Assembly (NCBI GenBank): GCA_000004695.1
Contig: CM000151.3
Span: 5,856,001 to 5,920,000, forward strand
DNA: 64,000 nt
Source: Dictyostelium discoideum
Taxonomy: Eukaryota
Direction: 5' to 3'
The position numbers and the translations under genes are program-made. Positions 24,760-28,721 of this stretch are shown piece after piece; the stretch's first letter is position 1, and every line of letters begins with the position of its first letter. The notes beneath the pieces are model-generated. The model was not told where the DNA came from. It ran no database searches and saw nothing but the letters and a program-made list of their open reading frames with translations.

Positions 24760-25214
24760 TTGTTACTACTTCTAAATTAAAATATTAACTACCCTTAAAA
24801 AAAGAAAAAAAGAAAAAAAAAAATTAAAAAAATAAAATTAAACAAAATAAATAATTTCAATCAAACCACAAAAATTTTCCCACACCAAAACACACAAAAA
24901 CCTAAAATTAACTAAAAATCTTTTTTTTTACCACAGCGGTTAGGGGTTTGTGTTGTATTTTTTTAAATACATTAAATTTTTATATTATTATTTTTATTAT
25001 TTTATTTTCTATTTTTTTTTGATTTTGATTTTGTAGTTTTATATCACATTTTCTTTTTTTAAATTTTTTAATTTTTTTAATTTTTTTATATCCTAAAAAT
25101 TTTTTTAAACTAAAAACTGGTTCAACCTTTAAATTAGATGATTGAATTTATTCGTACAATTAATACATTTAACCACATTCACCTAAATTTCACACATTGA
25201 TACCTTAATGCTTT

Positions 25215-25265
<51 letters not shown>

Positions 25266-25475
25266 TTTCCAAAAATATAAAAAATTCTATTTTTAGAATT
25301 TTCATACATGTGACATAATTTCATCAAGATTCGATCGATCTTAAAATGAATTAATTTTTTTTTTTTTTTTTTATAAAAACATTAGTAACTATTTAATTTT
25401 ACCAACTTCGAGTATAATATTAAATATTTTAAAACACACAGATATCAGTTTTTAAAACAATTTTACTATCTATCT

Positions 25476-26177
25476 TTATTTTTTTTTATAAAAAAAGAAT
25501 CCCATTGTTATTTTATTGTATTTAGAACATGGTTGTCTTGAAGTTTGGTCATCTCCATCTGAGTAATAAATCCTATTTCCATTTAGTTGGCAACCACCAT
25601 TAGAATGATATTTATATTTCGTTTGTTTGAGTTCACCAACAAGTCCTATAATAAGTTTACCATCATACCTTTTTAATCCAACCAACTGATCATTGGTGTT
25701 ACTAGGAGTCAATATTTCTCTATAAAATATTTTCACATATGTTTCATAACCTTGATTATAATATTCTGAAAGATCACCCATTAAAGTAACCCAATCTCTT
25801 TCACAATTTACATACAGTTCATGTAAAACACGTCTGATTTGATCATAATCATTGAATCGATTGATAATATTACATGATTTATTTGTAGGGTGTATAACAT
25901 TGTTGTTCGTCTCCCTTAACTTTTGTTCTAAATTAATATAAGCATCAGTATCAACATCAGAAGGTTCCTCTTGGTTATTACTCTTATTGTTGTTTTTATT
26001 TTGTTCATTTAAATAATATTTATCATATAAATCCTTAATATTTGGAATTTCCATTTTCTTTTCATTATAAAAAACCTTAATTAAAGAAAATGTCAATATG
26101 GCTTGATTTTCATATATGTTATATTGAGATGGATGGTGACTCGACATAACCAAAACCTTATTTTTTTCGAAACACAT
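25476..26177 (-). CDS. Hypothetical protein (233-aa ORF); intact member of a tandemly duplicated unit, with uncertain 5' structure
   Basis: The ORF is non-repetitive with ordinary coding composition (..RRVLHELYVNCERDWVTLMGDLSEYYNQGYETYVKIFYREIL..GLKRYDGKLIIGLVGELKQTKYKYHSNGGCQLNGNRIYYSDGDDQ..). A degenerate, frameshifted copy of its 3' half lies at 27760-27925. Confidence 0.45.
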   Translation of the reverse strand: MCFEKNKVLVMSSHHPSQYNIYENQAILTFSLIKVFYNEKKMEIPNIKDLYDKYYLNEQNKNNNKSNNQEEPSDVDTDAYINLEQKLRETNNNVIHPTNKSCNIINRFNDYDQIRRVLHELYVNCERDWVTLMGDLSEYYNQGYETYVKIFYREILTPSNTNDQLVGLKRYDGKLIIGLVGELKQTKYKYHSNGGCQLNGNRIYYSDGDDQTSRQPCSKYNKITMGFFFYKKK

Positions 26178-26218
26178 AATAAATGATGGGAAACCTAAAC
26201 CTGTTTTTTTATTATAGT

Positions 26219-26285
26219 TTATATTATTCTCTTTGCTATTGGTCTTTCTTCAAGTTGTGATTTATCAATTGATAAACTATTAATA

Positions 26286-26371
<86 letters not shown>

Positions 26372-26617
26372 AATATTATTATTAATATTATTATTAATAT
26401 TATTATTAATATTATTATTATTATTAATATTATTATTATTAATATTATTATTTTTATTATTATTAATAATATTATTATTATTACTATTATTATTAGTAGT
26501 AGTGGTAGTAGCAGTAGCAGTAATAGAAATTTCATTAAAATGTTTAATTAGTGGTTCTATTTTATGTTCATCTGATTTTATATTTATATTCTTAAATTCT
26601 TTATTTAATTGATTCAA
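26219..26617 (-). other. N-rich open frame directly upstream of the 25476-26177 ORF; possible upstream exon or 5' region of the same gene, but it has no ATG and no canonical splice donor
   Basis: In-frame NQLNKEFKNINIKSDEHKIEPLIKHFNEISITATATTTTTN(n)...SLSIDKSQLEERPIAKRII* with a coding-like non-repeat head. The start assigned by the track is a TTG. No GT donor lies between it and the downstream ATG. Confidence 0.25.
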
Positions 26618-27759
26618 CCATTCATCTGTTTTTTTTTTTGTTTTTGTGCAATTATCAAAATGTATTTTTAATGCTTGTAAATATTTTAAATAAAGTTATA
26701 TGTTAGTATTTTATTTTAAAATCCTTAATACTAATAATATATTTATATATATATATATATATATATATTAATATGTACAATTTATATTAATGCAATTTTT
26801 GATGGTTTTAATTTTTTCAAAATTTTCCATGAAGCTTTTATGTGTTATTAAAACTATTTTATTATATCTTCTTTATATCGAATGTTAATAATTCTTGAAA
26901 TTGTTACATTGTAATTATTTTCAAAATCATTTGATATGATATATTCTTGTACATTTAATTGTATTTTTACATCATCTTTGCTTTGTGGTACCATTTTATA
27001 ACACTATACAATTATTTTTATGATTGAAAAAATTTAAATCAGAAATAATTGGAAAAAAAAAAAGTTTTTATAAAAAAAAAAAAAAAAACTTTTTATTAAA
27101 AATTAAAAAAAAATAAAAAATAAATCTAATTTTTTTGTTAAATTTATAAGAAAATTTTAAAAACAATATTAAGTTATTAAAAATTAAAAATGAAAAAAAA
27201 AAAATAATATTAATTGTAGTTTTAAAATGATACTTTTGATTTCTATTTTTTTTATTTTTAAACTATTTTTAATGTTTCAAGTTGATTATTTAAATCAAAT
27301 CAATTTTTATATTATTTAGAAATTAATTTTTTAAATGTTTTATTTATTTTTTGATTTTTTGATGCACATAATTATTTTAAAAAAACATCTCAATTCTAAA
27401 AAGTTTACTAACATATTTGAATTTTTTTTTTTAAAATAAAAAAATAAATAAAACAATCAAAAAATTATCTCTGAAAATATAAAAATTCTTTTTTAAGAAT
27501 TTCATACATTTCACATAAAATTTCAGATTCAATTGGCCTTAAATTAATTTTTTTTTTTTTTTTTTTTTTTCTTAAAAAAATTAAAATAAGATGTTGAAAA
27601 AATGTTTTAACAACTTGAATATAATTTTAAATATTTTTAAACACAATAATTTCAGTTTTTAAAACAATATTACTATTTAATATTGGATCCCATAATTATT
27701 TTATATTTTTCAATTTGTGAAGGCAAAAAAATTCATTCTAATGGTGGTTCCATGTTCTA

Positions 27760-28010
27760 AAGTTTTTGGTCAACTTCATCTGAGAAATAATACTTAATTC
27801 CATTTAGTTTGGAACCACCATTAGAATGAATTTTTTTGACTTCACTTGAAAAAAGTCCTTTAATAAGTATACCATCATACCTTGTTAATCCAACCAACTG
27901 ATCATTGGTGTTTCTACATTGTATTTATTTTTAAAATCTTTTGAATTGATTCTTTCTTGTACATTTAATTTTATTTCTACATGATCTTTGATTTTTCCTG
28001 CCATTTATAA
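27760..28010 (-). pseudogene. Degenerate, internally deleted and frameshifted copy of the 25476-26177 gene (its 5' short-ORF segment fused to the 3' gene segment)
   Basis: The B-copy reading MAGKIKDHVEIKLNVQERINSKDFKNKYNVE runs directly into TPMISWLD*, the frameshifted homolog of ..NTNDQLVGLKRYDG.. in copy A. Confidence 0.6.
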
Positions 28011-28721
28011 TACTATATAGTTTTTTTATGATTGAAAAAATTTAATCAGAAAAAATTGCAAAAAAAAAGTTTTTTAAAAATGAACAAAAAAAAAATTAAA
28101 TTTAAATCTTATTTTTTATTCTTAAGAATTTACAAAAACATTGAAAAGTTTCGTAACAACTCAACCAATTTAAAATATATTCGGTAATCAATCTCAAGTC
28201 ATTGCAAAAAAAAAAATATAATGCTTTGTATGACTAATGAATATTATTTTAATATTTAAAGATATAAAAAAAAAAAAAAAAAAATTTTAAATATTGGATT
28301 AATATTAATATTTATATGTCCTCGATTTACATTGCTTTTTTTTATTTATATCTTTAAATATTAAAAACAAAAAAAAAAAAAAAAATTAAAAAAAAAAAAA
28401 CCCCACTAACACACCCCCTTTGATATTTTCAAAATAAAACTTGAAGAAAAAAATTAAATTAAAAAATTGTTTTTAGATATTTATTCTCAACTATTCATTT
28501 ATTTTTATTTAATTTTATTTTTAATTTTTATTTTTATTATTTTTTTTTTTTTTTTTTTTTTTTTTAATTGAAATCCCTTTTGAATTAATTTTTTCTAATT
28601 TTTTTTTTTTTTTATTATTATTTTTTTTTTATTCTAATTTCATCTATCTATATATATGGTAATAAATTAAAAAAAAAAAAAAAATTATTCCAGTTTTTTT
28701 AAAGATTTTCCATCTTCAAAA

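Follow-up and report, generated by a model that had tools for sequence, protein, structure and literature searches.

A 64-kb stretch of chromosome 2 of Dictyostelium discoideum AX4 (GenBank contig CM000151.3, positions 5,856,001 to 5,920,000; here called the window, with positions counted from its first letter) contains two related segments side by side, between a deiodinase-like gene and a gene for an Ig E-set/TIG-domain protein. One of them, copy A, carries the annotated gene DDB_G0275743 on the minus strand, identified by exact-sequence look-up; the other, copy B, is shorter. A preliminary description took the pair for an intact gene and a young duplicate caught in decay. The locus raises the question of how the two copies are related, when they arose, and whether either of them is still a working gene. 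We conclude with considerable confidence that the locus holds a non-processed, partial tandem duplicate of a gene confined to the D. discoideum complex and that both copies are neutrally evolving pseudogene relics. This conclusion draws on the anatomy of the copies, their distribution among strains and species, their lesions, and their neutral divergence.

Anatomy of the duplication

Orthologous 22-kb regions, anchored on the Ig/TIG neighbor, were compared from seven assemblies: D. discoideum ACTFIW (L004), ACTFIR (L009), and ACTFIT (L010), D. cf. discoideum (L005), and the outgroups D. citrinum (L006), D. dimigraforme (L007), and D. firmibasis (L008). The "four D. discoideum assemblies" below are AX4, ACTFIW, ACTFIR, and ACTFIT. 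Gene order around the locus is conserved across all assemblies compared. The duplicated unit in AX4 is laid out as follows.

25229-27245, minus strand: copy A, containing the 233-amino-acid (aa) open reading frame (ORF) of DDB_G0275743
25476-26177, minus strand: DDB_G0275743, hypothetical protein of 233 aa (XP_643544.1, Q552Y4), a 702-nucleotide (nt) ORF identified by exact-sequence look-up
27246-27432, no strand: spacer of 187 bp between the copies; its sole match is the orthologous ACTFIW spacer
27433-28258, minus strand: copy B, which repeats the upstream region and the initial 30 codons of A, joined out of frame to the last ~50 codons of A plus 3' flank

Three blocks of A recur in B in the same order and orientation, close to where they had first been noticed, and both ungapped and gapped alignments bear them out. 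The ungapped cores match at 86% (25410-25472 versus 27617-27679), 84% (25544-25613 versus 27765-27834), 93% (25638-25704 versus 27850-27916), and 83% (26905-26996 versus 27915-28006). Gapped alignments reach 271 bits for B 27433-27986 against A 25231-25775 and 182 bits for B 27860-28258 against A 26848-27245, compared with at most 57 bits for the remaining AT-rich matches in the region. Protein-level matches to A (tblastn) have E = 3e-11 for the 3' relic of B and E = 5e-7 for its 5' ORF, and the same approach found no further copy beyond A and B across the 64-kb window.

In a region with about 80 to 88% A+T, where many weak repeat families were reported, such similarity might be suspected to reflect mere chance matching of low-complexity sequence. 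However, the local alignment scores of A versus B, 189 for the 3' part and 122 for the 5' part, lie 15 to 27 standard deviations above those of Markov-simulated AT-rich sequences (31-34 +/- 6, maximum 53; 100 each), and real intergenic control segments scored 39 to 63, plus two repeat-driven outliers at 93 and 106. In addition, the best cores contain 30 to 36% G+C at 84 to 93% identity, and the identical arrangement is found in independent assemblies. Together with the protein-level match, these observations leave chance matching a vanishingly small probability.

Between A and B the first two blocks are displaced by 2,202 to 2,221 bp but the third by only 1,010 bp, which means that B lacks the equivalent of A 25705-26904 (1,200 bp). 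This segment takes in the (AAT)n/poly-Asn tract recognized by a tandem-repeat finder, in agreement with the initial estimate of a missing 1.2 kb that includes the N-rich part.

Homology extends beyond the coding sequence on both sides, into noncoding flanks (25229-25475 versus 27433-27700 and 26995-27245 versus 28005-28258), as in non-processed duplicated pseudogenes. This argues for the tandem segmental, albeit partial, duplication at the DNA level that had been proposed and against a retrocopy. A retrocopy origin of B is also contradicted by the missing segment, which covers coding sequence plus an intron, by the junction, which is not a splice product, and by the run beside the 3' flank, which is poly(T) on the gene strand. 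The 3' flank of A can be aligned to outgroups, with homology resuming at 25372 in D. citrinum and at 25495 in D. firmibasis, near A's stop codon. It therefore represents ancestral intergenic DNA, which fits a DNA-level duplication; poly-A-mediated exchange was ruled out on the same grounds. A test for a transposable element, on domain content and copy number, was negative, with no Pfam domains in any ORF of A or B and only two copies in the window. The similarity of the spacer to the B upstream region, to D. cf. discoideum, and to D. citrinum was no better than in simulations.

Copy B is an internally deleted relic

Copy B comprises the following parts, in addition to a hairpin that is described below.

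27433-27716, minus strand: 3' flank relic, which aligns to A 25229-25475
27757-27912, minus strand: what remains of the last ~50 codons of A (62% identical over 53 aa by tblastn)
27885-28004, minus strand: fused 39-aa ORF MAGKIKDHVEIKLNVQERINSKDFKNKYNVETPMISWLD, ending in a stop codon, with 30 exon 1 codons followed by 9 out-of-frame codons of the 3' segment
27909-27917, minus strand: deletion junction, GTAGAAACA on the gene strand, where the A-homologies overlap by 2 nt (TA at 27915-27916)
28005-28258, minus strand: upstream region, of which 28005-28082 is strongly similar to A; ancestral position beside the deiodinase-like gene

Across the junction, the gene strand of B reads TACAATGTAGAAACACCAATGATCAG. 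In strict register the microhomology is 2 bp (TA). The sequence GTAACA is present at both deletion edges in A, and a 6-bp microhomology at the junction is possible only if a 3-nt change occurred later. The fused ORF enters the 3' segment one base off A's frame and stops after nine codons (TPMISWLD and the stop), so the direct joining of a short 5' ORF to a frameshifted 3' segment had been read correctly from the start. The upstream region of B is contiguous with deiodinase-proximal DNA, as it is at the single-copy locus of D. cf. discoideum.

In the 3' relic, which has no ATG, the indels relative to A at first keep the frame (+3, -12) and then shift it (+2, +4). In a codon alignment of this relic with A, 33 of 50 aa are identical, with a nonsynonymous rate (dN) of 0.197 and a synonymous rate (dS) of 0.049; the coding remnants of A and B are separated by 20.5 nonsynonymous versus 1.5 synonymous differences. 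The remnant shows no purifying selection, and the 3' part of B is polymorphic for a loss of ~300 bp. With a 1,200-bp deletion, an out-of-frame fusion, +2 and +4 indels, an ATG-less 3' relic, and neutral substitution, B is indeed the internally deleted, frameshifted, and decaying copy that it had been taken for.

Copy A is the remnant of a longer gene

Comparison with the other assemblies resolves copy A into the following parts, which flank or extend the 233-aa ORF.

25229-25475, minus strand: 3' flank block, part of the duplicated unit, about 76% identical to B 27433-27700
26219-26673, minus strand: 5' part of exon 2, a poly-Asn/Thr low-complexity ORF (three-frame translation)
26674-26778, minus strand: intron 1, 105 nt, GTACAT ... 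TACTAAC ... ACAAG (comparative)
26779-26994, minus strand: exon 1 remnant, with the ATG at 26994 (MVPQSK...) and a frameshift about 26871/26872
26995-27245, minus strand: upstream region, with strong similarity to B at 26995-27075; contains a TATAAAAA motif and, after it, a T-run

An unrecognized 5' exon had been suspected near 26880-27000. This stretch does belong to the ancestral exon 1, which is continuous in ACTFIW, has a conserved frame, and precedes a TACTAAC intron, but the exon reaches 26779 rather than about 26880 and is frameshifted in AX4 and ACTFIT. The ACTFIW ORF runs from the MVPQSK ATG for 75 codons plus 1 nt, up to the GTACAT donor; the donor, the branch-like TACTAAC box, and the acceptor are kept in AX4, ACTFIW, and D. 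cf. discoideum. The frame of exon 1 in D. cf. discoideum is that of ACTFIW, with one stop, whereas AX4 and ACTFIT change frame. Removal of the equivalent 85-nt intron from ACTFIW yields 600 aa, the length of the annotated ACTFIW model that starts at that ATG; an exact-sequence look-up of the reconstructed 600-aa model gave no match. Enumeration of GT-AG introns linking the 5' ORF to the 233-aa ORF produced 32,310 models and was undiscriminating, and the comparative data were used instead.

The open frame of exon 2 extends over 532 codons in ACTFIW and 542 in ACTFIR, and AX4 is without the intervening ~0.55 to 0.9 kb. The 233-aa ORF corresponds to residues 174-404 of a 408-aa ACTFIR ORF, the nonrepetitive part. 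The preceding 173 residues (ACTFIR 1-173, about 170 codons) are missing from A in AX4 and from the window. ACTFIW has them too, and since they are kept, in degraded form, in D. cf. discoideum, AX4 has lost them. The poly-Asn/Thr ORF of A closes with a stop codon at 26219-26221, and its frame is not that of the 233-aa ORF. Its poly-Asn tract is encoded by a (TAT)n/(AAT)n array at 26278-26495 (about 73 copies, 89% matches). The length and internal structure of this tract vary strongly among ACTFIW, ACTFIR, and D. cf. discoideum, where the equivalents become poly-Gln/Thr/Pro-Gln.

The intact gene that A had been assumed to be does not exist in AX4: its exon 1 is frameshifted near 26871/26872, and roughly 170 codons are absent. 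The lesions in A differ between haplotypes, as listed here.

AX4 and ACTFIT: exon 1 frameshift; about 170 exon 2 codons gone
ACTFIW: in-frame stop (Tyr in AX4 and ACTFIR), about 84 codons before the end
ACTFIR: exon 1 deletion and frameshifts
D. cf. discoideum: four stops, several frame changes, and a ~130-nt loss

The annotated D. cf. discoideum model (L005 6929-9121; 590 aa) places about 420 nt of introns over at least four in-frame stops plus frame changes and is probably a pseudogene padded with introns by the gene finder.

The rates of change in A point in the same direction as its lesions. Between AX4 and ACTFIR, dN is 0.125 and dS 0.058, and between ACTFIR and ACTFIW the dN/dS ratio (omega) is 1.07; the Ig/TIG neighbor, at similar dS, has an omega of 0.47 to 0.56. 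Split by base class, A diverges by 0.066 at A/T sites and 0.188 at G/C sites, intergenic DNA by 0.045 and 0.258, and the constrained Ig/TIG neighbor by 0.018 and 0.107, respectively. Judged by these rates, A is diverging neutrally, close to intergenic DNA (dN/dS about 1 to 2). Its high overall divergence results from its higher G+C under AT-biased mutation and is not a sign of selection.

What the ancestral gene encoded

On another reading only B is dead, and DDB_G0275743 would still function as a protein-coding gene in AX4. It has a protein annotation, its 702-nt ORF is open, and the ACTFIT sequence is identical. Yet this ORF is the C-terminal third of a longer ancestral protein whose upstream exon is frameshifted, and it has diverged from the other haplotypes at a neutral or higher rate. 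The 233-aa ORF matches no Pfam or NCBIfam family, no domain was found, and the AlphaFold2 model of the AX4 ORF is unstructured, with a mean predicted local distance difference test score of 33. Furthermore, a search of 1.84 billion representative proteins returned no homologue, its only two matches being artefacts, long repeat proteins whose weak repeats sum up. All in all, we regard a functional copy A as very unlikely.

The word-indexed protein search misses the query's own entry, and its negatives are weak evidence. This failure can be traced to a fused gene model: the ACTFIT model (L010 10001-14191, KAM9945766.1; 1,036 aa) joins the DDB_G0275743 ORF (from MEIPNIK...) to the Ig/TIG gene, so that Q552Y4 falls into a 90% cluster represented by its neighbor and is not returned. 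A PDB sequence search produced no relatives, scans of prokaryotic genomes and viral contigs with the ACTFIR ORF likewise produced none, and a literature search on DDB_G0275743 found no papers. Membership of the uracil-DNA glycosylase superfamily (PF03167), also prompted by an HPS motif, was considered and rejected: the ACTFIW ORF scored 15.7 bits (E = 0.016) against a gathering threshold of 24.3, the match was not reproduced with the ACTFIR or D. cf. discoideum versions, and the PDB search returned no such glycosylase.

Possible transcription of copy B

Conceivably, B could be a working transcription unit, its promoter and first exon driving a short chimeric transcript or peptide or serving as an alternative first exon spliced to A exon 2. 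The 80 nt or so upstream of the ATG have been kept and are 85% identical between A and B, and the ATG-initiated 39-aa ORF is intact in 4/4 D. discoideum assemblies. Moreover, the ACTFIR gene model (6601-9136, 570 aa) starts at B's ATG; joining 106 nt of B (donor A/GTTGGT) to the acceptor of A exon 2 by a predicted splice gives exactly 570 aa. Against this, the model requires an 823-nt intron, far above the usual intron length in Dictyostelium, and the same splice in AX4 gives just a poly-Asn product ending at 26219. All three nucleotide differences between the AX4 and ACTFIW versions of the fused ORF are nonsynonymous, B's between-strain identity of 94 to 97% is that of the 22-kb locus background, and the TATA/T-run motif is degraded in ACTFIW and ACTFIR. 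We hold a working copy B to be quite unlikely. The 570-aa model looks like the gene finder's detour around A's broken exon 1, and the 39-aa ORF would be an accident of the fusion, with nothing that points to a function of B.

Two further indications were discarded. An apparently unusual conservation of B's 5' part between strains came from BLAST percentages that count gaps; in a calibration across the 22-kb locus, B is typical (94 to 97%) and A is the outlier (86 to 91% where the median is 97%). Logan contigs (L001-L003) covering 26263-25350 were considered as transcripts and are collinear with the genome. A contig of one of the same runs (SRR26869257) keeps the malate synthase intron, which makes it most likely that the runs consist of genomic reads.

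Distribution and age

The interval between the deiodinase-like and Ig/TIG genes measures 4.0 to 4.3 kb in D. discoideum and D. cf. discoideum versus 1.2 to 1.8 kb, devoid of gene models, in D. citrinum, D. dimigraforme, and D. firmibasis. Searching these three outgroup loci by tblastn with the longest gene versions revealed no trace of the gene, which at this site is hence specific to the D. discoideum complex. Within D. discoideum, ACTFIT shares A, B, and the hairpin with AX4, to which it is 99.4% identical. ACTFIW and ACTFIR form a separate haplotype group with a median identity to AX4 of 97% over the locus; both have retained the 5' part of B and are without AX4 27880-27575 (~300 bp), most of B's 3' coding relic. 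The B junction AATGTAGAAACACCAATGA of ACTFIW and ACTFIR is identical to that of AX4 and is also found in ACTFIT. D. cf. discoideum has a single copy, the upstream side of which joins deiodinase-proximal DNA, as in B, and the downstream side the Ig/TIG gene, as in A.

A tree of the 5' part groups the B copies in one clade and the A copies in another, and D. cf. discoideum falls outside both; the A-B distance is 0.157 versus 0.24 to D. cf. discoideum. For the 3' part, the branch leading to B is long (A to D. cf. discoideum 0.129, B to D. cf. discoideum 0.27, A-B 0.198). At A/T-only sites of the neutral 3' flank, A and B differ by 0.135, about three times the AX4-ACTFIR intergenic value of 0.045. 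D. discoideum haplotypes differ by about 3 to 5%, and A and B by 13 to 24%. The shared junction and this divergence place both the duplication and the internal deletion before the split of the present D. discoideum haplotypes, and the label "young duplicate" must be dropped. Set beside the single copy in D. cf. discoideum and the gene-free outgroups, these data would most simply date both events after the split from D. cf. discoideum.

A hairpin inside copy B

Copy B contains one more element, which went unmentioned in the preliminary description.

27717-27845, no strand: hairpin in B, with arms 27717-27752 and 27810-27845 (36 nt, 1 mismatch, 97%) and a 57-nt loop

Its minimum free energy is -61.8 kcal/mol versus -23.2 +/- 3.6 for shuffled sequences (z = -10.6; plus strand, z = -9.4), and no other inverted repeat in the window of 28 nt or more has arms above 10% G+C (here 36%), the rest being A/T-rich. 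The right arm is collinear with A coding sequence and belongs to B's relic; the left arm is an inverted copy located where the A/B alignment breaks. B-specific changes in the left arm show that B itself was the template. The hairpin is present in AX4 and ACTFIT and absent from ACTFIW and ACTFIR. We read it as a recent fold-back (template-switch) duplication in what appears to be neutrally decaying sequence.

Alternatively, it might be a young small-RNA precursor, either a proto-microRNA (miRNA) or a hairpin small interfering RNA (siRNA) locus, which would have originated when a gene fragment was duplicated in inverted orientation, would be transcribed from the promoter of B, and could target the A transcript. 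The 36-bp stem with its single mismatch and extreme z score, the lack of any other non-low-complexity inverted repeat in the window, the position 160 to 290 nt downstream of B's ATG on the same strand, and the pairing of antisense-arm 21-mers with A mRNA at 2 to 3 mismatches would all suit such a precursor. The miRNA/siRNA machinery of D. discoideum is functional, and most miRNAs of this species are young and intergenic (PMC11014262, PMC6161686). Scanning Rfam in E-value mode gave six sub-threshold matches to miRNA-precursor models, on both strands, at 27714-27845. These stacked matches are accounted for by the 36-nt inverted repeat itself, and none of them reached a gathering score, the best being 34.5 bits versus 90 for MIR161. 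The arms are absent from the supplementary miRNA lists of PMC11014262 and PMC6161686 and from a full-text search, so a stable hairpin was found without a gathering-threshold match or a published listing; neither paper speaks of an origin by inverted duplication, a phrase that is absent from PMC11014262, as is the word "inverted" from PMC6161686. The hairpin is missing in two of the four D. discoideum assemblies, a recent neutral fold-back equally predicts a long near-perfect stem, and the presumed target is itself a pseudogene, so that its regulation would be of no obvious value. On balance a small-RNA precursor seems unlikely to us. We find it improbable as well that a dead gene fragment of the AX4 lineage has turned into a hairpin-RNA gene, in which B's promoter would transcribe the inverted duplication and Dicer would yield small RNAs against DDB_G0275743 (2 to 3 mismatches).

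Neighboring features of the window

The genes on either side of the duplicated unit are the following.

21842-24277, minus strand: Ig E-set/TIG-domain protein Q552Y5, downstream neighbor of DDB_G0275743 on the same strand
28722-29498, plus strand: deiodinase-like gene, the next gene on the opposite side of the locus

The Ig/TIG gene (21842-24277; L004/L009 10001-12776) has two outgroup orthologues that give faint to weak matches to Pfam Ig_TgrO1. Between D. discoideum haplotypes its protein identity is only 92% (dN 0.04, dS 0.07 to 0.08, omega about 0.5), a high divergence given the locus median nucleotide identity of 97%. The deiodinase-like gene encodes a selenoprotein, with an in-frame TGA at 29058-29060 inside CGSFT-U-PPF and both halves in one frame. 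In newer Dictyostelium assemblies it is split into two models (136 aa and about 112 to 123 aa), which looks like a missed selenocysteine codon. Elsewhere, the sole tRNA of the window is a tRNA-Gln (UUG) at 51958-52030 on the minus strand, and immediately downstream of the malate synthase gene there is a second long inverted repeat (48913-48974/49211-49272), with arms of about 45 to 60 nt, AT-rich and not homopolymeric, spaced about 240 to 270 nt apart.

Discussion

The data presented above suggest the following course of events. A gene of roughly 2.5 to 3 kb would have arisen between the deiodinase-like and Ig/TIG (E-set) genes in the ancestor shared by D. discoideum and D. cf. discoideum, with two exons of about 75 codons and about 540 to 620 codons, the latter including the poly-Asn tract. 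In the D. discoideum lineage, a tandem duplication, possibly by unequal exchange or replication slippage, would then have copied the gene together with about 250 bp of 3' flank and at least 80 to 250 bp of upstream DNA. The upstream copy, B, would have lost the stretch from codon 30 to the last ~50 codons, later or in the same event, possibly by microhomology-mediated deletion (2 to 6 bp at the junction). Both changes would have been complete before the present D. discoideum haplotypes split, after which decay would have run separately in each of them. In AX4/ACTFIT, A would have acquired its exon 1 frameshift and lost ~170 codons, and B would have gained the 36-bp hairpin by fold-back inverted duplication, presumably through template switching. 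In the other group, ACTFIW would have acquired the nonsense codon in A and ACTFIR the deletion in A exon 1, and both would have lost ~300 bp more of B, while multiple stops and frameshifts would have accumulated in D. cf. discoideum.

Several points weigh against this reading. The 39-aa ORF of B is intact in every D. discoideum assembly, and the ACTFIR model starts at its ATG, as discussed for a working copy B. The outer end of the repeat could not be followed through the 187-bp spacer, which leaves a simple head-to-tail duplication not proven. The single copy in D. cf. discoideum could reflect secondary loss by unequal crossing-over. Likewise, the excess of dN over dS in A (omega about 2, marginal) could reflect diversifying selection and not AT-biased neutral decay, and the absence of function at the locus is inferred from sequence evolution only.

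The locus resembles non-processed tandem pseudogenes in its adjacent same-orientation copy, the homology of promoter and 3' flank, the internal deletion, the frameshifts, the neutral substitution, and the strain-variable decay. Unlike the usual representatives of this class, its parent A is also a pseudogene, the unit is limited to one species complex, and a 187-bp spacer separates the copies. It also resembles unitary or dying orphan genes: beyond D. discoideum and D. cf. discoideum no homologue of A is detectable, A is absent from three syntenic sites, and independent disabling lesions are found in every haplotype examined. It differs from them in that A could originate from translocation, horizontal transfer, or de novo, the outgroups having been searched at the syntenic locus only.

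As a third parallel, Allen et al. reportedly described in 2004 that young plant miRNA genes, such as MIR161 and MIR163, come from inverted duplication. Like these, the B hairpin has near-perfect arms from inverted duplication of a protein-coding fragment that are still complementary to the parent. Unlike them, it remains below every Rfam gathering threshold, its parent gene is decaying, its host is an amoebozoan, and no small RNAs are known from it.

In conclusion, the initial observation was correct and the phenomenon behind it ordinary, an old non-processed tandem partial duplicate. New here are that the parent is also a pseudogene, that the unit is dying independently in every haplotype, and that the short copy carries a hairpin. 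For annotation, this means that DDB_G0275743 is best regarded as the C-terminal remnant of a decaying, lineage-specific two-exon gene and that the 0.83-kb segment upstream of it is a dead partial duplicate. The fusion to the Ig/TIG gene, the start at B's ATG, and the intron-padded D. cf. discoideum model all look like artefacts of automated gene modeling.

Wider interest would attach to the locus only through the hairpin, and only if small RNAs are made from it; in that case it would represent the birth of an amoebozoan miRNA or siRNA by inverted duplication of its target gene, still polymorphic among strains. As it stands, the locus provides a small, well-resolved record, drawn from four D. 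discoideum haplotypes and four related species, of how a gene was gained, duplicated in tandem, and left to decay independently. It likewise illustrates that, in an extremely AT-biased genome, unconstrained coding DNA outpaces intergenic DNA in divergence and dN/dS may exceed 1 without selection.

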